Positions 209-10,239 are shown, counted from the stretch's first letter. The stretch: 16,106 bases of DNA from Candidatus Hodarchaeum mangrovi (GCA_016839515.1 JAEOUE010000186.1:1-16106); one strand, 5' to 3'. Made by a program: numbers and translations. Notes: generated from the sequence alone by a model not told the origin.

Positions 209-1630
209 TTGAAACCTAAAATACCAATAAGTGCTGCTATCATTGGCGCTGGAAATCGTGGGAAGGATGTTTATGGAAATTATGCTTTAAAAAATCCTGA
301 AGAGATTAAAATTGTTGCAGTTGCAGAACCAGATCCTATAAGATTAAAAATAATTTCTCAAGATCATAATATACCCTTAGCGTACCAATTTAAGACGTGG
401 GAAGATTTTTTTAAAAAACCAAAACTGGCAGAAACTGTGATCATCTGCACGCAAGATCAAATGCATACACAACCAGCTTTGAAAGCAATCGAACAAGGTT
501 ATGATGTATTGTTAGAAAAACCTATGGCTGTAACTCCAACAGATTGTGTTTTATTAGTTGAAAGTGTTAAAAAGAACAAAAGTCAACTTAGAATTGCTCA
601 TGTATTAAGATATAATAATTTTTTTCAAACAATTTATTCTTTTATTAAATCAGGAAAATTAGGGGATATTATAACCATCGATCATCGTGAAAACGTTAGT
701 TACTATCACTATGCTCATTCATTTGTTCGTGGAAATTGGTCTCAAGAAAAAACATCAAGTCCAATGATATTAGCTAAATCATGTCATGATTTAGATATTT
801 TGTATTGGCTTGTGGCAATTCAAGGGGGGCATCCTCAAAAAATCAGTTCTTTCGGTTCACTACGTCATTTTCATAAGGGAAATGCTCCACCTGGAGCACC
901 AGAGCGTTGTACTGATGGATGCCCAGTGATGGATTCGTGTAAATATTATGCTCCTCGAATCTATATCTCAATTATTCCTTTACTTCATGTAGTTCAAAAA
1001 GGTGGATCAGGAGTTCCTAAATTAATGGTAAATTTAGCTGTGAATTACCCTTCATTGTTTAAACGCCTTAAAAATATTATTCCCTTATTTAAGAAAGTTG
1101 AAGAGTATGAAGGATGGCCAGTGAATACGATTACAGAAAATTTTTCTTTCCAAGGACGTTGGGATGCATTATGTTCTGGACCCTATGGTAAGTGTGTGTA
1201 TCAAACCTCAAATGATGTAGTTGATCACCAAGTAACAATTATTGAGTTCAATAATCAAACTACTGCAACATTTACTATGCATGGGTTCAGTTATACAGAA
1301 GGTCGAACTATTCGGATCGATGGTACAAAAGCTACTCTTCTGGGACAAGCTTTAGATTATGGAAATACCATTAAAATATACGATCATTTAACTGGTAAAG
1401 AAGAATTTATTCTTCGAACTAAAATGGACTTTGAACCTGAAAGTGGCCATGGAGGTGGAGATAGGTTATTAATAAAATCATTTATAGAATCCATCAGGGA
1501 AAAGTCTCCAGTAGAACCACTTACTAGTGCTCAAGAATCACTCGAAAGCCATATGATGGCTTTTGCTGCTGAGGAAAGTAGAAAAAAGAATTTAGTCATT
1601 AACCTAGATGAATTTAAATCACGATTTTAA
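209..1630 (+). CDS. Gfo/Idh/MocA family NAD(P)-dependent oxidoreductase (Cys-motif subfamily)
   Basis: N-terminal Rossmann motif IIGAGNRG, ICTQDQMH, hallmark LLEKPMA, catalytic-region KSCHDLD, C-terminal HGGGD. TTG start with GAGTGA 6 nt upstream. Confidence 0.93.
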   Translation: MKPKIPISAAIIGAGNRGKDVYGNYALKNPEEIKIVAVAEPDPIRLKIISQDHNIPLAYQFKTWEDFFKKPKLAETVIICTQDQMHTQPALKAIEQGYDVLLEKPMAVTPTDCVLLVESVKKNKSQLRIAHVLRYNNFFQTIYSFIKSGKLGDIITIDHRENVSYYHYAHSFVRGNWSQEKTSSPMILAKSCHDLDILYWLVAIQGGHPQKISSFGSLRHFHKGNAPPGAPERCTDGCPVMDSCKYYAPRIYISIIPLLHVVQKGGSGVPKLMVNLAVNYPSLFKRLKNIIPLFKKVEEYEGWPVNTITENFSFQGRWDALCSGPYGKCVYQTSNDVVDHQVTIIEFNNQTTATFTMHGFSYTEGRTIRIDGTKATLLGQALDYGNTIKIYDHLTGKEEFILRTKMDFEPESGHGGGDRLLIKSFIESIREKSPVEPLTSAQESLESHMMAFAAEESRKKNLVINLDEFKSRF

Positions 1631-1657
1631 AACTAATTGCAGGCTAGGTGTAAATAC

Positions 1658-2296
1658 TTGATAATATATGAAGAAATGGCTAATTCTGTTGTTGATTTAG
1701 ATATGGAAAAAGCTCTGAATTTAGCACAAAAAGCATTAGATGATAATTTACCTTTACTCGAAGTGATTGAAAAAGGTTTTGGTGAAGGTATTAAGCGTGT
1801 GGGTGATTTATGGGATGAAGGAGAATTTTTCTTGCCTGAATTAATGAGAGGAGCTCAGATAATGCAATCTGCAGTCGATTTACTTCAACCACATCTAGAA
1901 TCACAACAATCAGTCCGTGAAACAAGAGGGAAAGTTCTAATGGCTACTATCGAAGGAGATATCCATAGTATTGGAAAAACAATAGTTTCTACAATGTTGA
2001 GAGCCAATGGATTTGAAGTTCTTGATTTAGGGGCTGATGTAAAGATAGAAACAATTATTTCAGAAGCTAAAAAGCATAAAGTTAATGTAATAGGGATATC
2101 AGCACTCCTTACTACAACAATGATCGGACAAAAGAAAGTCATTGATGCATTAGAAAAACATGGCATCCGCAATAATTTCAAAGTAATGCTAGGAGGAGCT
2201 CCTGTAACTCAATCATGGGTTGATGAATGTAAAGCAGATGGTTATGCAGAAAATGCTGTATCTGCTGTAAAATTAGCAAAAAAACTCTGTTCTTGA
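1658..2296 (+). CDS. Methyltransferase cognate corrinoid (cobalamin-binding) protein, MttC/MtbC-like
   Basis: N-terminal cap helices (GIKRVGDLWDEGEFFLPEL), B12-binding DxHxxG motif (EGDIHSIG), SALLTTT and GGAP motifs. The start is placed at in-frame TTG 1658 because AGGTG (1646-1650) precedes it; the ORF track start is 1637. Confidence 0.93.
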   Translation: MIIYEEMANSVVDLDMEKALNLAQKALDDNLPLLEVIEKGFGEGIKRVGDLWDEGEFFLPELMRGAQIMQSAVDLLQPHLESQQSVRETRGKVLMATIEGDIHSIGKTIVSTMLRANGFEVLDLGADVKIETIISEAKKHKVNVIGISALLTTTMIGQKKVIDALEKHGIRNNFKVMLGGAPVTQSWVDECKADGYAENAVSAVKLAKKLCS

Positions 2297-2297
2297 C

Positions 2298-3206
2298 TTG
2301 GTTATTTCAATGGATGTTCTATTTGATTATCTAGAAAAAAAAGGGACTCTTCTATTTGATGGATCAATGGGTACTCAACTTATGTTACGAGGTCTTAATC
2401 AAGGTGAGATTCCCGACATTTGGAATATTAAGAAACCAGAAGTAGTCCAAGCTATATTTAAGAATTATTTTACAGCTGGAAGTGACCTAGTCCAAACAGC
2501 TACTTTTCGTGCTAATCCTATTGCTCTCAAAACACAAAATTTAGAAAATCTAGTCAAAAAGATTAATGAATCCTCTGCTTCTCTCCTGAAGGATATTCGT
2601 CCAGAAGGAAAATTAATTGTAGGAGATATCGGTCCTAGTGGTCTTTTCTTCCCACCTGTTGGAAACGCTGACTTCAATGAGCTTGTTTCTAGTTTTAAAC
2701 AACAAGCAAAAGTTTTAGCTCCCTTTATTGATGCTTTCCATCTAGAAACCTTCTCAGATATCCAAGAGATGAAAACAGCCATTGAAGGAGTTAAGAAAAT
2801 AACAAATAAACCAATTATTGCTAGTATGACCTATAAAAGAACTCCTAAAGGATTTTTTACGATCATGGGAAATTCACTTAGTCAAAATATTATTGAATTA
2901 CTAGAATTAAAAGTTTCTGTAATTGGGGCTAATTGTACTTTAGGAAGTGCAGATTTCATTGAACTCTTTAAAGATATGAGAACTGATAGTGAAACAGTGC
3001 CATTGTCTGTAAAACCCAATGCTGGACAGCCTAGCCTTCAGAATGGCAAATTAATTTATAAACAGTCACCAGAAGAATTTTCAAAAGACATAAATTCAAT
3101 ATTAAACTTAAATAATGGTCCATTAATAATAGGGGGATGTTGCGGGACTAAACCAGACCATATCAAGCTTTTACGACAATTAATAAACCAAAAAATGTCA
3201 GGATGA
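2298..3206 (+). CDS. Stand-alone homocysteine S-methyltransferase family protein (MetH Hcy-binding domain-like)
   Basis: LFDGSMGTQL, TATFRAN, GDIGPSG, ETFSD, zinc ligands GANC and GGCCGT, PNAGQP. The ORF is only about 300 aa with no fused pterin or B12 domain. The start may be ATG 2310. Confidence 0.92.
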   Translation: MVISMDVLFDYLEKKGTLLFDGSMGTQLMLRGLNQGEIPDIWNIKKPEVVQAIFKNYFTAGSDLVQTATFRANPIALKTQNLENLVKKINESSASLLKDIRPEGKLIVGDIGPSGLFFPPVGNADFNELVSSFKQQAKVLAPFIDAFHLETFSDIQEMKTAIEGVKKITNKPIIASMTYKRTPKGFFTIMGNSLSQNIIELLELKVSVIGANCTLGSADFIELFKDMRTDSETVPLSVKPNAGQPSLQNGKLIYKQSPEEFSKDINSILNLNNGPLIIGGCCGTKPDHIKLLRQLINQKMSG

Positions 3207-3213
3207 GAATTTA

Positions 3214-4662
3214 ATGACTATATTACGACCAAAAATTAATTTATTAACTAATCAATATATTGAAACAATATTAAATGAAGCAAAAAATATTTTAAACAAT
3301 TTAGGGGTTTTAATCGAAAATAAAGATGCTCAAGAGCTTTTAAATAATGAAGGACTAGACCATAATGGACAGAGATACTACATTCCTATTGATTTAATCG
3401 AAAAATGCTGTGAAATGGCACCACGATCTATATCATTGTATGACAGAGAAGGAAATGAAAGTCTGGAATTAAGCAATGATAAAATTCATTATGATCCAGG
3501 TTCTGCAGCAATTTTTATTCAAGATTATGATACAGGTGAAATTCGTAAAGCTTTATCTTCTGATTATATTAAATTTACAAAAATTGTCTCTCAGTTAGAT
3601 CATTTTGATGCTCAAAGTACATCATTGGTCTACTCAGATATACCAACAGATGCACAAGATTGGCATAGATTATACTTAGCATTAATTTATTGCAATAAAC
3701 CGATAATAACTGGTACTTTTAGAGTAGAAAGCTTTTCAATTATGCGACAATTATTGGAAGTAACAAGAAACTCACCCAAACAACTTGCTGCCAAGCCCTT
3801 AGCTATTTTTGACGCTTGTCCATCTCCCCCCCTAATGTGGTCTAATCTCACCACTCAATCTGTTATTGATGCAGCGAAAGCTGGAATTCCATCAGAGTTT
3901 GTTAGCATGCCTTTATCTGGATCAACAGCACCAATTACACTTATTGGAAGTATTACACAACATGCTGCTGAAAGCTTAGCTGGGGTGGTCATATCCCAAT
4001 TAGCAAGACGTGGTGCACCGATAATTTGGGGTGGATCTCCTGCAATATTTGATATGAAACAAGGAACAACGCCAATGGGAGCTATAGAAACAATGATGAT
4101 TAATATTGGAGATGCAGAAATTGGTAAATCACTCGATCTGCCTACTCATGCTTATATGACTCTTTCAGATTCAAAAGTCCCAGATGCTCAAGCAGGATTA
4201 GAAGCAGCAATGGGAGGATTATTAGGAGCTTTAGCGGGAATTAATATGATCTCAGGCCCAGGTATGCTTGATTTTGAATCAACACAAAGTTTTGAAAAAT
4301 TAATTATTGATCATGAAGTAGTTGGAATGTCGAAAAGGCTAATTAAAGGTATTATTGATTACGGAAAACCATTTGCAGAAAAGATCCTTTCAGATTATGA
4401 TGCAAATTATTCTCTTCTTTCTCATCCAATCACTTTATCTTTGTTCCGAAAAGAATTATTTTTCCCAACAAGGATTGAGGGCATCGAAATTATTAATCGT
4501 GAAACACGTGAAAAATGGAAATCAGAAGGTGAAACTTCTGCACGACAGAGAGCTAAAAAAATGGCTAAAAATTTATCTGAAAGACCACCAAAGATTCCTA
4601 TTGATTCATTAACCCAGAAGGAATTAAACAAGATAGCTTCGGAATTTTTGAACAAAAAGTGA
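3214..4662 (+). CDS. Trimethylamine methyltransferase (MttB) superfamily protein, non-pyrrolysine type
   Basis: SPPLMW, MPLSGSTAPITLIGSITQHAAESLAG, GAPIIWGG, DMKQG, SDSKVPDAQAGLE and GMLDFESTQSFEKLIIDHE motifs. No in-frame TAG. Confidence 0.93.
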   Translation: MTILRPKINLLTNQYIETILNEAKNILNNLGVLIENKDAQELLNNEGLDHNGQRYYIPIDLIEKCCEMAPRSISLYDREGNESLELSNDKIHYDPGSAAIFIQDYDTGEIRKALSSDYIKFTKIVSQLDHFDAQSTSLVYSDIPTDAQDWHRLYLALIYCNKPIITGTFRVESFSIMRQLLEVTRNSPKQLAAKPLAIFDACPSPPLMWSNLTTQSVIDAAKAGIPSEFVSMPLSGSTAPITLIGSITQHAAESLAGVVISQLARRGAPIIWGGSPAIFDMKQGTTPMGAIETMMINIGDAEIGKSLDLPTHAYMTLSDSKVPDAQAGLEAAMGGLLGALAGINMISGPGMLDFESTQSFEKLIIDHEVVGMSKRLIKGIIDYGKPFAEKILSDYDANYSLLSHPITLSLFRKELFFPTRIEGIEIINRETREKWKSEGETSARQRAKKMAKNLSERPPKIPIDSLTQKELNKIASEFLNKK

Positions 4663-4760
4663 TTGCAACAATCCAACTCTTTTTTAATCCTTATGAATAT
4701 TCTTCGATTGGCATTGTTAATCTTTATTAACAATATGCATTTTCTAGTAAGGAAGAATAA

Positions 4761-6491
4761 ATGACTTTCAATCCGTATCAACTCTCAAGAGCAATATATG
4801 ATCGTTCTATTCAAAAAAACTTACCTATAATATGTTTTTTTTATGATAGTCTTTGTGATAGCTGTAAAAGTTTTTCTAAGGCAGTTCTCTCTCACCCCAT
4901 ATTACAGGAATTGCTAGAAAATGATTTTATCCCAGTATTTTTAGAAGTAAACTGTTTTCCAGAATTATGGTTACGATTAATTGGTGATTCGGATTCTTAT
5001 TATCATCAAGTATGTAGCATTGATGGAATAATTTTTGGGAATTGCAAGGATAGTAACACAGAACTTATTTTACGTAATATTGTTTATTATCATGAAAATA
5101 TTGCTTCCATTCAAATTGAGGATAAATATGGGAAAAAACAGTATAAACCACTGATAATGGATAGTCAAAATAAATTTCATCAGAAAATCGAACGTATATC
5201 AGAAATTACTCTTTCCTCACTCCTAAAAAACTATGATCGGATGTATGGTGGATGGTATAATGGTCATAATCCGATAAAAAAGCATTTTCCCTCCTCCTTA
5301 GAATACTTATTACTTCTCTATCAGAGAACTAGAGACAACCCACTTCTACAGATGATAGTTCAAACATTAGATTCTTCATATAGTGGATTGTATGATCCAG
5401 ATGCTGGGGGTTTTTATGAATATTCCGTTAGTCGTGATTGGACAACTATTGGGAGCTATCAAAAAGTCCTTCAAACAAATGTTTCTGTTGCCAAAATATA
5501 TTTGCATATGTTTCAAATTTCTAAAGACTATAGATTCAGGGATATTTTAAAAGAATCTTTAGAGTTCATTAATGATCAATTTTGGGACGAATCAGAGTGT
5601 TTATTCACACATTCAATTCTTACTAATGATTCAGAATTTATTAAAAATGACTATTTCATTACTGATTCTAATTGTCAGGTCCTTTTACTATTTTTAGATT
5701 CAAATTTATCTTTAGAAGAACAACGATATATTCCGAAAGTTCAAAAAGTGATAAAACGTATTGAGGAAGGGAAAACTAAATACGGAATACCGCATACACT
5801 TAATGAACCAAAACCTGATCAATTTTTGTTAAGGGATCAAGCAGCATTTCTTCAATTACTTTTAAATGTCTATTCATTATCAGGAGATATTTCTTATCTT
5901 CATAAAGCAGAAAAGATGCTAGAAATAATAATGAGTTTTTACTTTGATCGTCAAATGAACCTTTTTCAAGATCGACTTATTAGGGAGAATGATTTTGGAC
6001 CCTTTAAACAAAATATCTATTCAATTCAAGATAATGCAGTAATGATTAATAATTTAGTAACACATTCACATTTTCTCAATAATCCAACTTATAAAGAGAT
6101 TGCGATGAGATGTGTCACTAGCTACTATCAAAATTTTGGTATTTCCCGTGATTCTCCATTCCCCTCTGAATTTGTAATAGCTGCACAACGAATAATTGAA
6201 AGTCCTATAGAACTACTAATCATTGGACATCTGGAAGAAGAAACGGATCTTATTGATCGAATGCTACTGGAAATGAAAAGGATTTATGACCCTTTTAAAA
6301 TAATTCAAATATTAGATCCAATTAGAGACAAAGCACTTATTGAGAAAAAGTTATCCTCAATTCGTATATTTAAAAAACCAACATGCTATGTAAAAGTAGG
6401 AGATACAATATCTCCTCCTACATTTTTTCCAAAAGAAATAGCATTACTGCTAGATACACTACTTGAGGCGATCAAATACACTTTTGAATGA
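4761..6491 (+). CDS. Divergent YyaL/SSP411-like protein (DUF255 thioredoxin-like domain + six-hairpin alpha-barrel)
   Basis: N-terminal CxxC (CDSC) followed by LLENDFIPV; YDRMYGGW...KHFP; GLYDPDAGGFYEYSVSRDW; FLLRDQA; C-terminal PTCYVKVGDTISPP. These match the YyaL motif order recalled from memory. Confidence 0.8.
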   Translation: MTFNPYQLSRAIYDRSIQKNLPIICFFYDSLCDSCKSFSKAVLSHPILQELLENDFIPVFLEVNCFPELWLRLIGDSDSYYHQVCSIDGIIFGNCKDSNTELILRNIVYYHENIASIQIEDKYGKKQYKPLIMDSQNKFHQKIERISEITLSSLLKNYDRMYGGWYNGHNPIKKHFPSSLEYLLLLYQRTRDNPLLQMIVQTLDSSYSGLYDPDAGGFYEYSVSRDWTTIGSYQKVLQTNVSVAKIYLHMFQISKDYRFRDILKESLEFINDQFWDESECLFTHSILTNDSEFIKNDYFITDSNCQVLLLFLDSNLSLEEQRYIPKVQKVIKRIEEGKTKYGIPHTLNEPKPDQFLLRDQAAFLQLLLNVYSLSGDISYLHKAEKMLEIIMSFYFDRQMNLFQDRLIRENDFGPFKQNIYSIQDNAVMINNLVTHSHFLNNPTYKEIAMRCVTSYYQNFGISRDSPFPSEFVIAAQRIIESPIELLIIGHLEEETDLIDRMLLEMKRIYDPFKIIQILDPIRDKALIEKKLSSIRIFKKPTCYVKVGDTISPPTFFPKEIALLLDTLLEAIKYTFE

Positions 6492-7075: not shown

Positions 7076-8083
7076 TTATTCCTCTCTTGAATTTTCATCT
7101 TCTTTTAACCGATTCTCGATACGTCGAGTTGATAAACAAATTCGACAAACTTTAAATTGCGGTCTTGCAAATGGAGCAAAACGGCTACAAACAAGACATT
7201 TACGATATTCTACAAATGGGTAACGTTTGGAACCTTCTTGGTAGTATGATACAATCATTGATGTCTTTTCTAGTTTCCTCTTGGAATTAATGGCAATTTC
7301 AAAAGCAGATTGACCAAATAATATATTATGACTTACTGCTAAGCCATAAGAACTTACATTTAAACACTGAGTTCTACCAACATAGTTATGATAGCCACCA
7401 CAATAATGGACATGCCCAAAAATTGAAAGGAGAGGTTGATAATCATCAATAATCTTCCGAAGATGATAGGAACCGATATGATGATCTGCAAAACTAGAAA
7501 AATCTAAGATACCTCTAGGTGGAGTATGGGTAAGTAAAATTGCTTTTCTTCTTTCTGTGGAAGAAAGTTCATCTATTTTCGGAGTGAGATCACGTTCAAG
7601 ATCAGGATCATCCCAACACTTTCCACTTGGGTTTCCAAGTGTTTTATTTGCATCATTATAACCGATTATTGGAATATCTTCTAGATATTTGATAGTAGCA
7701 TGACAATTAATGAAATTAGCGAAATTTTCATCAAACCATCGCCTTAACTCATCTGTTAAAGGTGTGTTATCCTCATTTTCCTTTTCAGAATCCATTATGT
7801 CAGAATTCCCCCAAATATAATATACAGGTATGTCGGTATTGGTATTAAGTAAATTAAAAACTGAATCATCTTGAATTAATTTTTTAATCTGCACCAAGGC
7901 GCTTTGATCAGTCCCTAAAATCCAAGAATAATCTTGGAGATCTCCTGAGAGTAAAATTGCTTTTGGATTTCGTTTCAACAAATTATCTATTAGTTTCTCT
8001 TGTTTTATTACTTCTATACCTGATGGAAGTGAAACTGGATTTCCTTGATGAAGATCGGATATCGCTATTAACTTTAATTCCAT
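7076..8083 (-). CDS. Calcineurin-like metallophosphoesterase (Icc-related) with C-terminal Cys4 zinc finger
   Basis: Motifs ISDLH, SGDL, WGNSD, THTPP, FGHVH; C-terminal CLVC-x13-CRIC; perfect GAGGTGA SD upstream. Confidence 0.9.
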   Translation of the reverse strand: MELKLIAISDLHQGNPVSLPSGIEVIKQEKLIDNLLKRNPKAILLSGDLQDYSWILGTDQSALVQIKKLIQDDSVFNLLNTNTDIPVYYIWGNSDIMDSEKENEDNTPLTDELRRWFDENFANFINCHATIKYLEDIPIIGYNDANKTLGNPSGKCWDDPDLERDLTPKIDELSSTERRKAILLTHTPPRGILDFSSFADHHIGSYHLRKIIDDYQPLLSIFGHVHYCGGYHNYVGRTQCLNVSSYGLAVSHNILFGQSAFEIAINSKRKLEKTSMIVSYYQEGSKRYPFVEYRKCLVCSRFAPFARPQFKVCRICLSTRRIENRLKEDENSREE

Positions 8084-8322: not shown

Positions 8323-10239
8323 ATGACAAAATACACTTCTTATCAAGAGGCACATAAATTATCGCTTAAAAACCCAAAAGAATTTTGGGAACAAGAAGCT
8401 GAGAAATTACATTGGTATAAAAAATGGGATAAAGTTCTAGATGATTCAAAGTCTCCGTTCTTTCGATGGTTTGTAGGGGGAAAAACAAATCTGTGCTATA
8501 ATGCCCTCGATCGTCATGCACTAGGAGAAAAACGGGGAACAGCAGCGTTAATCTGGGAAAGTCCTGAAACAAATCAAACCAAAGTATATACTTTTTATTC
8601 CTTATATAAAGAGGTAAATAAATTTGCAGGAGTATTGAAAAATCTCGGAATAAAGAAAGGAGATCGTATTATAATTTATATGCCTATGATTCCCGAAGCG
8701 ATTATTTCGATGCTAGCCTGTGTGAGAATTGGAGCTATTCATGGCGTTGTTTTTGCTGGTTTTAGTCGAGAATCGTTAGCAGGAAGGATCGATGATGCAA
8801 AACCAAAATTATTAATCACAGCAGATTGCGGAAGTCGTGGTGGAAAGCTCGTTAAATTAAAAGAAATTGTCGATGCTGCAATTAATAGCTCAGAGGAGGA
8901 CGTAAAAAGTGTTATTATATATAATCGAAAGTTTGATTCTGAATTGAGAATAACTAAAGGGAGAGATTTAGACTGGGAAGAGCTAATGAAAAAAAAATCC
9001 ATGAAATATGTTCAACCCGAAGAAATGGATTCGAGTGACCCAACTTATATTTTATACACAAGTGGTACAACAGGTAAACCTCGAGGGGTGGTAAGAGATA
9101 CTGGTGGATATATGGTTGCTCTCCACGCATCGATGAATCAAATCTATGATTGCCACCCAACAAATGGCGACATTTATTTCAGTACAAGTGACATTGGATG
9201 GGTGGTAGGACATAGCTACATTGTTTATGCCCCGTTGTTGGCAGGTATCCCAACTATCTTATATGAAGGAACCCCCATTTATCCTGATCCTGGTATTTGG
9301 TGGCGAGTTATGGAAAAATGGGGTGTGACACATGTCTTTTCTGCACCAACTGCTTTTCGAATATTGAAAAAATTTCCGGAATCATGGATTACAGATAGAG
9401 ATCTTTCCTCAATAAAATACTTCTTCATGGCAGGAGAACCATTGGATGAACCAACATATCATTGGGCAAAAGAAGTGTTAAAAACTAAGGTTATTGACCA
9501 TTATTGGCAGACAGAATCAGGTTGGCCGATGTTAACTAATATGCCAGGAATTGAATTAATGGAAATAAAACCTGGATCACCAACAAAACCTGCTATGGGT
9601 TGGGATCTGTTAATTGTAAATGAGAATGGAAATGAGATGCCTCGAGGAGAAAAAGGAACATTGGTTTGCAGACCACCTCTTCCTCCTGGAACCCTTATGA
9701 CTGTTTACAACGATGATATACGGTATAAAACCTCCTATTGGGAAATATTTCCCAAGAAACAGCTTTATTATACTGGAGATTATGCAATCCAGGATGGCGA
9801 TGGATACTTCTGGATTCTTGGCAGAGCAGATGAAGTTATCAAAATTGCAGGCCATAGATTGGGAACTCGTGAAATTGAAGAAGCGATTTCCTCTCATAAA
9901 GCTGTAGCAGAAACTTCATGTATAGGGGTTGAGGATAAATTAAAAGGGACTGTAGTTATTGCATTTGTTGTACTAAGAGAAGGATTTACAGTATCAGATA
10001 CTTTAAAGCAAGAAGTTGTTGATGTAGTTCGAGAACAAATAGGTCCTATAGCTGCTCCAAAGGCAGTGGAAGTAGTAAAAATTCTTCCAAAAACAAGATC
10101 AGGGAAAATTATGAGACGGGTTTTAAAAGGAGTATATGAGGAAAAACAATTAGGTGATCTTTCAACAATCGAAGATGGTGCTTCTATTGATGAAGTTTCT
10201 AACGCTATTAATGAAATGAAAAAGGAGCTAGGAAAATAA
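8323..10239 (+). CDS. prpE: Propionate--CoA ligase / acetate--CoA ligase family (AMP-forming acyl-CoA synthetase)
   Basis: WFVGGKTNLCYNALDRH, AMP-binding YILYTSGTTGKPRG, SDIGWVVGHSYIVYAPL, DHYWQTESGWP (PrpE-type), PKTRSGKIMRR with the catalytic Lys. The PrpE versus Acs assignment is moderately certain. Confidence 0.85.
   Translation: MTKYTSYQEAHKLSLKNPKEFWEQEAEKLHWYKKWDKVLDDSKSPFFRWFVGGKTNLCYNALDRHALGEKRGTAALIWESPETNQTKVYTFYSLYKEVNKFAGVLKNLGIKKGDRIIIYMPMIPEAIISMLACVRIGAIHGVVFAGFSRESLAGRIDDAKPKLLITADCGSRGGKLVKLKEIVDAAINSSEEDVKSVIIYNRKFDSELRITKGRDLDWEELMKKKSMKYVQPEEMDSSDPTYILYTSGTTGKPRGVVRDTGGYMVALHASMNQIYDCHPTNGDIYFSTSDIGWVVGHSYIVYAPLLAGIPTILYEGTPIYPDPGIWWRVMEKWGVTHVFSAPTAFRILKKFPESWITDRDLSSIKYFFMAGEPLDEPTYHWAKEVLKTKVIDHYWQTESGWPMLTNMPGIELMEIKPGSPTKPAMGWDLLIVNENGNEMPRGEKGTLVCRPPLPPGTLMTVYNDDIRYKTSYWEIFPKKQLYYTGDYAIQDGDGYFWILGRADEVIKIAGHRLGTREIEEAISSHKAVAETSCIGVEDKLKGTVVIAFVVLREGFTVSDTLKQEVVDVVREQIGPIAAPKAVEVVKILPKTRSGKIMRRVLKGVYEEKQLGDLSTIEDGASIDEVSNAINEMKKELGK

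Follow-up and report, generated by a model that had tools for sequence, protein, structure and literature searches.

A corrinoid protein, a MetH-type homocysteine module and an MttB-family enzyme as a candidate pterin-free methionine synthase in an Asgard archaeon

Based on the analysis of a 16,106-nt stretch of DNA from Candidatus Hodarchaeum mangrovi (GCA_016839515.1 JAEOUE010000186.1:1-16106; hereafter the window), we propose that the three genes at positions 1637-4662 probably specify a cobalamin-dependent methionine synthase made of three proteins, which works without a methyl-pterin step. In the best reading of the locus, the functional core consists of the corrinoid protein, the homocysteine (Hcy) module and the MttB-family enzyme, with the Gfo/Idh/MocA gene upstream standing outside it.

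Results

Layout of the locus

Four plus-strand open reading frames were read between positions 209 and 4662, and the source labels of their homologues agree with an Asgard origin. The features are as follows:

209..1630, plus strand, 473 aa: Gfo/Idh/MocA gene, of the NAD(P) oxidoreductase family, the upstream neighbour
1637..2296, plus strand, 219 aa: corrinoid carrier gene, MttC/MtgC-like
2298..3206, plus strand, 302 aa: stand-alone, zinc-dependent Hcy module gene of the MetH type
3214..4662, plus strand, 482 aa: pyrrolysine-free gene of the MttB superfamily
4677..4690, plus strand: T-rich tract ctcttttttaatcc, beginning 15 nt past the MttB stop codon

With the listed TTG/ATG starts, the intergenic gaps are 6, 1 and 7 nt. 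The first in-frame ATGs of the corrinoid and Hcy genes lie at 1676 and 2310, respectively, with which the gaps before these genes become at most 45 and at most 13 nt, and the ATG at 1676 is probably the true start of the corrinoid gene. The initial annotation had described four co-oriented, tightly packed genes with intact motifs, and the ORF calls, Pfam scores and alignments confirm this description. The gene that follows starts 98 nt beyond the MttB stop codon. Oligo-T tracts terminate transcription in archaea, and the T-rich tract at 4677..4690, by its composition and place, is possibly the end of the transcription unit.

The corrinoid carrier protein

The corrinoid protein carries the B12-binding and B12-binding_2 domains of Pfam with scores of 101.2 and 68.4 bits, both far over the cut-offs, and its match to TIGR02370 (228.3 bits, cut-off 215.3) identifies it as a cognate corrinoid protein. 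Its best solved relative is Methanosarcina barkeri MttC (7xcn_M, 172.8 bits), and it scores 167-173 bits with MttC/MtmC proteins versus about 105-110 bits with the Cob domains of MetH. The DxHxxG motif noted earlier is present as D108, H110 and G113, and does not vary in any of the 50 aligned orthologues.

Linkage of the three core genes in Asgard archaea

Linkage was assessed in the best 80 loci of 566 relatives found among genome contigs. In the Cor-Hcy-MttB order and strand, the Hcy gene stands directly upstream of the MttB orthologue at 77 of these best 80 loci of 566, with a median gap of 25 nt, and the corrinoid gene stands upstream of the Hcy gene at 73, five of the seven misses being contig ends. 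The four-gene synteny put forward by the initial annotation holds for Cor-Hcy-MttB, with the Gfo/Idh/MocA gene joined to it in only part of one genus. At two of the best 80 loci (L016 and L090), MttB orthologues of 70% and 61% identity stand among unrelated genes, and the 8 kb upstream contain neither Cor nor Hcy. No pterin-binding family was found among 39 neighbour proteins scanned with Pfam, a small part of the neighbours at the fetched loci.

Additionally, co-occurrence was followed in 201 sampled Asgard genomes, of which 61 contain PF02574 and 73 an MttB orthologue (E<=1e-120). According to the per-genome rows, read by hand, an MttB orthologue accompanies the stand-alone Hcy module in 54 of the 57 sampled genomes that have this module, and 19 of the 73 genomes with an MttB orthologue lack the stand-alone module.

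Sister lineages carry variants of the cluster. A locus of family f6 (L104) has the order Cor-Hcy-Act-MttB on one strand, its Act protein matching PF02965 with 32.2 bits, and three f2 loci (L102, L103 and L105) hold the same Cor, Hcy, Act and MttB set with 1-3 genes inserted, where the Act gene was assigned by Pfam in L102 (38 bits) and by 54-62% identity to that of L102 in the other two. In 5 of 6 f22 genomes, Cor-MttB lies beside a convergent core methionine synthase (PF01717, 119.9 bits; PRK00957, 244 bits against a cut-off of 258), which replaces the MetH-type Hcy module. Weak PF01717-like genes also occur in 6 of 10 genomes of the host's own genus and in 18 of 40 f13 genomes, and could be other synthases.

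Methionine synthases, pterin enzymes and activators in the host genome

The initial annotation had suggested looking elsewhere in the genome for MetE/MetH, pterin-binding methyltransferases and a RamA/RACE activator. The 91%-complete Hodarchaeum genome yielded no MetE, no MtrH, no MTHFR, no candidate MtgD-type gene and no methyl-pterin methyltransferase, the sole PF00809 match being DHPS; and a search with TIGR02082 returned only model positions 5-313 and about 616-879, on separate genes, with no pterin module of MetH. At 91% completeness and 6% contamination of the assembly, these absences are provisional. A canonical fused MetH (TIGR02082) was rejected, as its modules lie on separate genes and the pterin module is unmatched, and so was an MtgBCDE-type system, as the MtgD-type pterin-binding gene was not found in the 91%-complete Hodarchaeum genome. 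The activator is present: a RamA/RACo-type protein is encoded on contig C54, away from the cluster. No activation gene lies within the window cluster. An Act-like protein on contig C236, beside a different corrinoid system, scores 22.9 bits, under the Pfam cut-off of 25, and shares 32-37% identity (E about 1e-31 to 1e-40) with the cluster-borne Act proteins of relatives.

This inventory bears on an alternative that we regard as unlikely, in which the cluster would be a catabolic methylotrophy module that delivers amine methyl groups to THF/H4MPT through a methyltransferase encoded elsewhere, with the Hcy module as a minor side outlet, as proposed for Ruegeria MtgBCDE. In Ruegeria, MtgB/C are described as feeding THF via MtgD, with MtgE as a constitutive side module, and Valentin-Alvarado et al. 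(2024) proposed THF/H4MPT transfer for the Atabey- and Freyarchaeial homologues; furthermore, the f18 MttB orthologue adjoins MtrH (322.6 bits), and therefore the methyl group may go to H4MPT in some lineages. However, neither MtrH nor MTHFR nor any pterin methyltransferase beyond DHPS was found in the 91%-complete genome, and the neighbour that is fixed at 77 of the best 80 of 566 loci is the Hcy module, not a pterin module.

The MttB-family enzyme and its putative donor pocket

The MttB-family protein belongs to the superfamily defined by PF06253 (240.8 bits, cut-off 25, residues 6-472), is the only match to this family in the Hodarchaeum genome, and is about equidistant from its solved relatives MttB (7xcl, 162.8 bits) and MtgB (2qne/9yce, 153 bits). 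As the initial annotation had held, it is a non-pyrrolysine member: the frame is open with no in-frame stop, and where M. barkeri MttB (7xcl) has its pyrrolysine the alignment places Leu317. The open frame, Leu317 and the score against TIGR02369 (334 bits, under the cut-off of 525) rule out a pyrrolysine-dependent trimethylamine MttB. Family membership suggests that the protein could act as a methyl-donor:corrinoid methyltransferase.

The residues by which MtgB binds betaine were given as Y97, R312, H348 and F356 (Picking et al., 2026), and S97, H312, S347 and E355 stand at these places in the MttB-family protein, in a sequence-only alignment of roughly 30% identity wherein the H348 column adjoins a one-residue indel. 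They are kept in 98, 96, 91 and 98, respectively, of 98 Asgard homologues, and the putative pocket residues are identical across all Asgard variant clusters (98 sequences). The replacement of all four residues argues against an identity as an MtgB-type glycine betaine:corrinoid methyltransferase, which was rejected as a candidate, and makes glycine betaine, one of several donors that the initial annotation listed for trial, probably not the donor. Judged from the aligned residues, the donor may be a methylated amine without an acidic group, which could be trimethylamine-, choline- or tetramethylammonium-like.

It is improbable, in our view, that the same relay runs on a donor other than a methylamine, with the MttB-family protein functionally replacing the folate barrel of MetH and the methyl group coming, endogenously or otherwise, from a methyl-pterin-like cofactor, a methylated thiol or sulfonium, or methanol. 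The 59-71% identity of MttB orthologues between Asgard classes does look like that of a housekeeping gene, and the pocket has changed in keeping with such a donor: the Arg common to all characterised quaternary-amine members (Picking et al., 2026) is His here, both cation-pi aromatics of MtgB are replaced, and pyrrolysine is absent. Against it, the characterised members of the MttB superfamily, as they have been described, all use a methylamine or a quaternary amine, and no MTHFR that would make methyl-THF was found in the Hodarchaeum genome; the separate MtrH beside the f18 orthologue speaks against pterin handling by the MttB protein itself, and the import of donors is suggested by a few Loki-type loci, where genes for an MFS transporter and a second paralogue of MttB lie upstream.

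The homocysteine module and its predicted complex

The Hcy module matches PF02574 (S-methyl_trans) with 195.7 bits, far over the cut-off, and is the only protein of this family in the Hodarchaeum genome. Among solved structures it is closest to the Hcy module of Thermotoga maritima MetH (1q7m, 163.6 bits), and it is far weaker against BHMT (54 bits) and SMM-type HMT (41 bits). Cys213 in GANC and Cys281/Cys282 in GGCC, the motifs recognised in the initial annotation, are invariant in 50 of 50 orthologues and align with the cysteine motifs of T. maritima MetH, which marks the protein as a MetH-type module; we take the three cysteines to be zinc ligands, as in MetH and BHMT. On these likenesses, the module is proposed to serve as a methyl-corrinoid:homocysteine methyltransferase. 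The Hcy module and the corrinoid protein were predicted as a complex with an ipSAE of 0.57 (best control 0.00), at least 87% of contacts agreeing between runs and a partner pLDDT of at least 83. This clears a pass mark that 58 of 80 solved complexes and 2 of 110 mismatched pairs also cleared, and passing scores of 0.60 or less came from 7 of the 80 solved complexes and from both passing mismatches; moreover, the score may reflect memory because MetH structures are solved. The model thus weakly suggests that the two proteins associate.

We consider it quite improbable that the Hcy protein works alone, either as a betaine- or S-methylmethionine/SAM-dependent enzyme or by methylating another thiol, its position then reflecting co-regulation. 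Corrinoid-independent enzymes do fall within PF02574 as well, and among NCBIfam models the protein scores 187 bits with BHMT PRK07534 and 231 bits with the YitJ-type PRK08645, both below cut-off; but its preference for the MetH module over BHMT and SMM-HMT, the position between the corrinoid and MttB genes, fixed at 73-77 of the best 80 of 566 loci, and the addition in sister clusters of a MetH activation-domain protein, meaningful only with a corrinoid, all speak for a corrinoid partner, to which the predicted complex adds a weak hint.

The Gfo/Idh/MocA neighbour

The upstream protein is a family member by PF01408 (66.2 bits, far over the cut-off), PF02894 (47.8 bits) and PF22725 (38 bits), but its Pfam and NCBIfam matches are confined to the N-terminal half, all NCBIfam scores are far under cut-off, and the best PDB match reaches 46.9 bits. 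Its orthologue adjoins the cluster at 6 of the best 80 of 566 loci and is absent from the other 74 fetched loci; it is next to the cluster in genomes G062, G136 and G139, too. Orthologue and cluster lie on separate contigs in G184 and G193, and the orthologue is off the cluster contig in eight of eight same-class f2 genomes in which the cluster was placed (G045, G068, G097, G115, G133, G145, G157 and G166); at E<=1e-40 it was not found in G102, G107 and G119, all of which bear the cluster. The Gfo-Cor gaps of relatives are roughly 80-190 nt, versus 6-45 nt in the window. The linkage is restricted to part of one genus, so that the coupling to a Gfo/Idh/MocA enzyme that the initial annotation had stressed is not upheld, and the gene is probably an unrelated neighbour and no component of methyl transfer. 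Despite its co-orientation and short gap in the window and its adjacency in those few relatives, the wider gaps, separate contigs and absences elsewhere make it very unlikely that all four genes form one pathway in which a methylated sugar, an inositol, an amino alcohol or the like would be the donor or the product left after demethylation and the oxidoreductase would make or consume it.

Discussion

The three-protein methionine synthase that we favour could work as follows. First, the MttB-family TIM-barrel enzyme would demethylate a small donor molecule, and the Co(I) corrinoid bound to the MttC-like carrier would accept the methyl group. Once methylated, the carrier would bind to the MetH-type zinc module, and methionine would form as this module moves the methyl group onto homocysteine; homocysteine should be available because an S-adenosylhomocysteine hydrolase gene was found in the Hodarchaeum genome. 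Carrier oxidised to Co(II) would be repaired by the RamA/RACo-type activase, and the MetH-activation-domain-like protein on C236 possibly shares this task. What the analysis shows directly is the protein families, the catalytic motifs, the linkage, the co-occurrence and the missing alternative genes in the 91%-complete genome. From the linkage, the variant clusters and the pterin genes not found in this genome, we infer which way the methyl group flows, that homocysteine accepts it and that both enzymes use one carrier; this is the part of the initial annotation that stands, whereas its Gfo/Idh/MocA coupling, a betaine donor and its view of the system as a likely undescribed one do not. Points against the favoured explanation are the two unlinked loci, the 19 genomes with an MttB orthologue but no stand-alone Hcy module, the MtrH of f18, the activation gene missing from the window cluster and the weak PF01717-like genes; moreover, a methionine synthase dependent on an outside donor is odd as the sole housekeeping enzyme.

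More tentatively, most Asgard archaea of the Loki, Hod and Heimdall types may rely on the cassette, working without pterin, as their main and often their only methionine synthase, a joint reading in which the invariant Glu355/His312 pocket would bind a non-acidic methylamine, replacing pyrrolysine or the Arg of the betaine enzyme, and one donor enzyme would serve three lineage-specific acceptors, namely the MetH-type Hcy module, core-MetE and MtrH. If this is true, vitamin B12 and methylated amines from outside would be required for the SAM cycle in the archaea most closely related to eukaryotes, and published Asgard reconstructions that count the cassette 'MetH' as folate-dependent would need correcting.

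Comparison with known systems

The window system shares with MetH a Hcy module nearest that of T. maritima and a DxHxxG corrinoid domain, but it lacks the folate module, its modules are separate proteins, and its corrinoid protein is nearer MttC/MtmC. The Thermotoga/clostridial form of MetH, which has a separate activation protein, has counterparts in the Asgard clusters of f2 and f6; in the annotation of Peptoclostridium acidaminophilum, a stand-alone activation-domain protein lies beside a MetH without such a domain. The MttB/MttC pair of M. barkeri (7xcl, 7xcn; Li et al., 2023) comprises the best solved relatives (162.8 and 172.8 bits), although its acceptor is described as a CoM methyltransferase, instead of the Hcy module of the window, and pyrrolysine stands in its MttB where the window protein has Leu317.

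According to Price et al. (2021, PLoS Genet, PMC7857596), corrinoid proteins are the source of the methyl groups that core methionine synthases use, and these enzymes, MesA, MesB and MesC, resemble the proposed system in converting homocysteine to methionine from a methyl-corrinoid protein with no methyl-pterin. However, their acceptor family is PF01717, versus PF02574 in the window, and their predicted donors are MtrA or CoFeSP; the main text of that paper has no mention of MttB, trimethylamine, Asgard or Lokiarch.

The MtgBCDE system of Ruegeria pomeroyi, Phaeobacter inhibens and S. meliloti was demonstrated genetically (Mausz et al., 2025, PNAS, PMC12478193). It is likewise split, MtgC serving both the MttB-family MtgB and the stand-alone Hcy module MtgE, and its reactivation is ascribed to RamA-type proteins, a RamA/RACo also being present in the Hodarchaeum genome. 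Nevertheless, methionine synthesis by MtgBCDE needs the pterin-binding MtgD and methyl-THF, mtgD mutants being methionine auxotrophs; its donor is glycine betaine, whose binding residues are not conserved in the window MttB; and mtgE usually lies apart from mtgBCD, whereas the window Hcy gene lies between the corrinoid and MttB genes.

The suggestion that the system was undescribed has to be withdrawn, since in addition to the related MtgBCDE, Williams et al. (2022, Environ Microbiol, PMC9324843) hypothesised as a bacterial methionine synthase, with the donor unknown, a cluster of an MttB/MtgB homologue, a Hcy S-methyltransferase, a corrinoid protein and an activation-domain protein. The same three core families and the same hypothesis of corrinoid-dependent methionine synthesis apply here, and their MttB homologue also falls in an uncharacterised clade nearer MttB than MtgB. 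Their hosts are given as 'diverse bacteria' (Ca. Electryoneota and others; their Table S4 may list archaea), as opposed to the Asgard archaeon here, and their MAGs are reported to encode a full MetH also, whereas none was found in the 91%-complete Hodarchaeum genome. The activation gene of their cluster is missing from the window cluster and present in the f2 and f6 relatives: the window cluster contains three of the four genes, the Act-like protein encoded on C236 is sub-cut-off, and all four occur together in L102-L105. The window cluster is a new archaeal member of the kind hypothesised for bacteria.

The gene cluster and its relatives

The four co-oriented genes with intact motifs described in the initial annotation were confirmed by open reading frames and by Pfam/NCBIfam searches. 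They lie on a window that is the entire 16,106-bp contig C122 of a 4.0-Mb assembly (genome G000; 348 contigs, 91% complete, 6% contaminated). A search for matching sequencing runs listed 20 of DNA, from 7 studies, and none of RNA.

209–1630, + strand: Gfo/Idh/MocA oxidoreductase; only the N-terminal half matched in Pfam/NCBIfam, and all NCBIfam equivalogs scored far under their cut-offs
1637–2296, + strand: methyltransferase-cognate corrinoid protein (Cor); TIGR02370, 228.3 bits versus a cut-off of 215.3
2298–3206, + strand: homocysteine S-methyltransferase domain protein (Hcy module); PF02574, 195.7 bits
3214–4662, + strand: MttB-family protein; PF06253, 240.8 bits; TIGR02369, 334 bits, under the cut-off of 525

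With the listed starts, 6, 1 and 7 nt separate the genes; with first ATGs, two of the gaps would be 45 and 13 nt. The MttB stop codon is followed by a T-rich tract and, after 98 nt, by the next gene. The corrinoid protein has the DxHxxG motif and the Hcy module its three cysteines, and both features are unchanged across 50 of 50 orthologues. The Hcy module is nearest to that of Thermotoga maritima MetH (163.6 bits, versus 54 for BHMT and 41 for the S-methylmethionine-type enzyme), the corrinoid protein is nearest to carriers of methylamine systems (MttC, 172.8 bits; MtmC, 166.6 bits), with MetH Cob domains at about 105–110 bits, and the MttB-family protein is about as far from MttB of M. barkeri (162.8 bits) as from MtgB of D. 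hafniense (153 bits), its Leu317 aligning with the pyrrolysine position of MttB. Because the nearest relatives are MetH for the Hcy module and methylamine-methyltransferase types for the other two, the system is, by its sequence relationships, a hybrid of a methylamine-methyltransferase-type donor enzyme and carrier with a MetH-type acceptor module.

The best-supported reading, which we regard as fairly probable, is that methyl groups flow through three of these proteins from a donor to the corrinoid carrier and on to homocysteine, as the initial annotation had proposed; the evidence for it is the linkage of the genes, the variants of the cluster in other lineages, and a genome, 91% complete, in which no methyl-pterin route was found. 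The pairing of Hcy module and corrinoid protein also receives weak support from a predicted complex (50-row alignments), whose ipSAE of 0.57, versus 0.00 for the best control, passes a mark that 58 of 80 solved complexes reach, as do 2 of 110 mismatched pairs; of those passing, 7 of the 80 solved complexes and both mismatches score 0.60 or less. At least 87% of contacts were common to the runs, and the partner pLDDT was at least 83; as solved MetH structures exist, the predictor may have passed the pair because it had seen them.

Linkage and co-occurrence in Asgard archaea

Of 8,000 candidates scored against the MttB protein, 7,885 are relatives at E ≤ 0.001; the 120 matches listed are all 63–100% identical to the window protein, and the named ones are labelled Hod-, Heimdall-, Thor-, Loki-, Hermod- or Kari-archaeal, Promethearchaeota, or marine sediment metagenome. 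Linkage was counted in the best 80 of 566 loci with MttB relatives, obtained from a scan of genome contigs. Of the four-gene synteny expected at the outset, the order of three genes stood and the Gfo gene did not: the Hcy-module gene is directly upstream of MttB on the same strand in 77 of the 80 loci (median gap 25 nt) and the corrinoid gene upstream of the Hcy gene in 73, whereas the Gfo gene adjoins the cluster in 6. Of the seven loci that lack the corrinoid gene, five are cut by contig ends, as is one of the three that lack the Hcy gene; the true exceptions are two loci (L016 and L090) in which the MttB neighbours are unrelated. These best 80 of 566 loci are all Asgard-labelled. A tblastn search with the Hcy module gave 135 plasmid records, and in the two examined the Hcy homologue has no MttB neighbour, one being a clostridial MetH accompanied by metF and a separate activation protein, the other a lone Paracoccus bmt gene. 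One locus (L059, DATKTW010000084.1) is titled 'Candidatus Nanopelagicaceae bacterium' and carries a typical Asgard Cor-Hcy-MttB cluster with the usual Loki-type neighbours; its label or binning is probably wrong.

Co-occurrence was assessed in 201 sampled genomes of the phylum, with MttB orthologues called at E ≤ 1e-120. PF02574 was found in 61 of them and an MttB orthologue in 73, PF02574 being confined to six families (f1, 8/10 genomes; f2, 16/21; f3, 3/7; f6, 3/3; f13, 28/40; f26, 2/3). Four of the 61 PF02574 genomes (G148, G169, G089 and G094) have fused MetH-like genes, and by the per-genome rows 54 of the remaining 57 have an MttB orthologue; it is missing from G187, G077 and G189, in the last of which the Hcy gene sits about 800 bp or less from a contig end.

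A comparison of this Hodarchaeales cluster (1637–4662) with loci L024–L094 and L102–L105 gave higher identities to the Loki-type family f13 than to the same-class families f2 and f6, namely 62–66% versus about 50% for MttB, 56–67% versus 49–54% for Cor, and 44–52% versus 39–43% for Hcy. That all three proteins are nearer to f13 hints at a transfer of the whole cassette within Asgard.

The Gfo/Idh/MocA gene and other flanking genes

Gfo orthologues 57–65% identical to the window protein adjoin the cluster in the six loci (L015, L017–L021) and in three genomes (G062, G136, G139), lie on other contigs in G184 and G193, and were not found at E ≤ 1e-40 in G102, G107 and G119, though these keep the cluster. 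Similarly, in eight f2 genomes with a placed cluster (G045, G068, G097, G115, G133, G145, G157, G166), the Gfo orthologue (50–55% identical) is on a different contig. Because its adjacency is so patchy, the Gfo gene is taken to be a neighbour rather than part of the system, and the coupling of this oxidoreductase to methyl transfer, which the initial annotation had put forward, is not supported.

Other flanking genes recur in relatives. A 576-aa protein encoded at 4761–6491, with a weak N-terminal thioredoxin-like match (24.3 bits, under cut-off), also occurs 3′ of MttB in L015, L017 and L019 at 42–46% identity. A divergent pair, consisting of a metallophosphoesterase with a Cys-rich C-terminal tail (7076–8083, − strand) and an AMP-forming acetyl-CoA synthetase (8323–10239, + strand), is kept beside the cassette in the genus (L015, L018, L019 and L021); relatives have an Ldh_2-family dehydrogenase at this pair that the window lacks.

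Candidate acceptor modules exchanged between lineages

To survey variants of the cluster, 18 regions from other families were fetched and annotated. In the f6 locus (L104), one strand carries Cor-Hcy-Act-MttB, Act being a 219-aa protein with a match to the activation domain of MetH (PF02965, 32.2 bits). Three f2 loci (L102, L103, L105) have these four genes too, with 1–3 other genes interposed; the MttB proteins of both families are about 50% identical to that of the window. In f22, a Cor-MttB pair without a MetH-type Hcy module is followed by a convergent gene for a 301-aa core methionine synthase (PF01717, 119.9 bits; PRK00957, 244 bits versus a cut-off of 258), an arrangement seen by coordinates in five of six genomes (G038, G028, G070, G047, G064) and checked at the level of open reading frames in L099, L100 and L116. 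It looks as if the acceptor module had been replaced here by a non-homologous one. The MttB orthologue adjoins a more distant relative of the f22 core synthase in f26 (L101), and MtrH (322.6 bits) in f18 (L107).

One clade of donor enzymes is therefore linked, depending on lineage, to a MetH-type Hcy module, a core-MetE or MtrH. These swaps form the strongest argument that the MttB clade would load a corrinoid carrier with methyl groups, with homocysteine as the usual final acceptor. Core synthases have been considered probable recipients of methyl groups from corrinoid proteins (Price et al., 2021, PMC7857596); by term search, 'MttB' and 'Asgard' do not occur in the main text of that paper.

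The f16 loci differ in their neighbours. A CysK/cystathionine-beta-synthase-like PLP enzyme (TIGR01136, 339 bits) lies directly 5′ of Cor-MttB (L110:5010–6065 and L111:5508–6563), and neither PF02574 nor PF01717 was found in the 19 sampled f16 genomes. An Arf/Roc-like small GTPase is encoded downstream of Cor-MttB in both loci.

Methyl-transfer genes in the rest of the genome

PF06253 and PF02574 each have one match in G000, both inside the window. In this 91% complete assembly no MetE (PF01717), complete MetH or pterin methyltransferase was found, TIGR02082 matching only Hcy-type and corrinoid-type pieces and no pterin module, and neither MtrH nor MTHFR was detected. The sole PF00809 gene was considered as a MeTr/MtgD-type methyltransferase and ruled out, being a dihydropteroate synthase by TIGR01496 (194 bits versus a cut-off of 162.6). 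G000 encodes an SAH hydrolase, found likewise in 10 of 10 genus members, and hence makes homocysteine; a RamA/RACo activase is encoded on contig C54. Contig C236 encodes a 222-aa protein that is 32–37% identical (E about 1e-31 to 1e-40) to the Act-like proteins encoded in the f2 and f6 clusters and matches PF02965 at 22.9 bits only.

Two further corrinoid systems were observed. That at C236:6108–8868 (L007, L117) comprises a 221-aa MtgC/MtbC-like corrinoid protein directly followed by a pyrrolysine-free MtmB homologue of 464 aa (PF05369, 326.5 bits), and the gene for the 222-aa activation-domain-like protein adjoins this pair convergently. As no acceptor methyltransferase was found near the pair, it might feed the same Hcy module as the window cluster. 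The other, at C118:2240–4247, comprises a 140-aa B12-binding protein and a 527-aa URO-D-like protein (MtaA/CmuA-type) with an SCP2-like tail.

The pocket and the methyl donor

MtgB binds glycine betaine through cation-pi contacts of Y97 and F356 and through R312 and H348 at the carboxylate, and R312 is reported to be shared by every characterised member, all of them acting on acidic quaternary amines (Picking et al., 2026). After correction of a two-residue numbering offset in chain 9yce, these four residues align with S97, H312, S347 and E355 of the window protein. A betaine donor is not supported, as all four betaine-binding residues differ. Ser97 and Glu355 are shared by all 98 Asgard homologues compared, the core-MetE- and MtrH-linked ones included, His312 by 96 of them and Ser347 by 91. 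By alignment, the clade thus has its own fixed pocket, without pyrrolysine, without the betaine-type Arg and with an invariant Glu at the Phe site of MtgB, from which, at roughly 30% identity in the alignment, we infer a non-acidic cationic donor.

Genes recurring near the cluster in the best 80 of 566 loci gave no clear hint of the donor; they are an EamA-type transporter (31 loci), HisRS (27), an MFS_2 transporter (13, mostly about 6 kb off), a GDSL lipase and POR. Four loci (L028, L034, L039, L045) have a second, distant MttB paralogue (MttB2; 25–30% identical, pocket G/Y/L/G/D) directly 5′ of the corrinoid gene; L034 and L039 have an MFS_2 transporter gene ahead of it, in the order transporter-MttB2-Cor-Hcy-MttB.

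Comparison with known systems

In the Asgard literature these genes have been read in other ways. Non-pyrrolysine MttB homologues beside MtrH were described as quaternary-amine methyltransferases feeding THF or H4MPT (Valentin-Alvarado et al., 2024), a paper whose main text does not contain the word 'homocysteine'; Asgard metH was counted as a folate-dependent enzyme (Filée et al., 2023); and a 2024 study of Heimdallarchaeia proposed that the Hcy-module protein, as 'MetH-N', replaces MetF and AcsE in the Wood-Ljungdahl pathway. The gene neighbourhoods argue for a simpler role of the Hcy module than the latter two readings. We found no publication in which the Asgard cassette is interpreted as a methionine synthase; archaea may be listed in Table S4 of Williams et al. 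(2022). If the reading is true, many Asgard archaea regenerate methionine without folate or methanopterin and need cobalamin and a methyl donor for it, which bears on metabolic reconstructions, the design of cultivation media, and views of methylated-amine turnover in sediments.

The description of the system as undescribed is not borne out, since a novel corrinoid-dependent methionine synthesis, its donor unspecified, has been hypothesised in print for bacteria since 2022 (Williams et al., 2022, PMC9324843), and the cassette is an archaeal member of that hypothesised kind. To it are added here the finding of no methyl-pterin route in G000 (91% complete), a Gfo neighbour that is not conserved, the exchange of the acceptor module between lineages, and the clade-wide pocket residues. 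In Ruegeria, one corrinoid protein is shown by genetics to be shared between an MttB-family betaine demethylase and a split methionine synthase, but methionine synthesis there still requires the pterin module MtgD (Mausz et al., 2025, PMC12478193), whereas the three-gene archaeal cassette would carry methyl groups to homocysteine without a methyl-pterin step.
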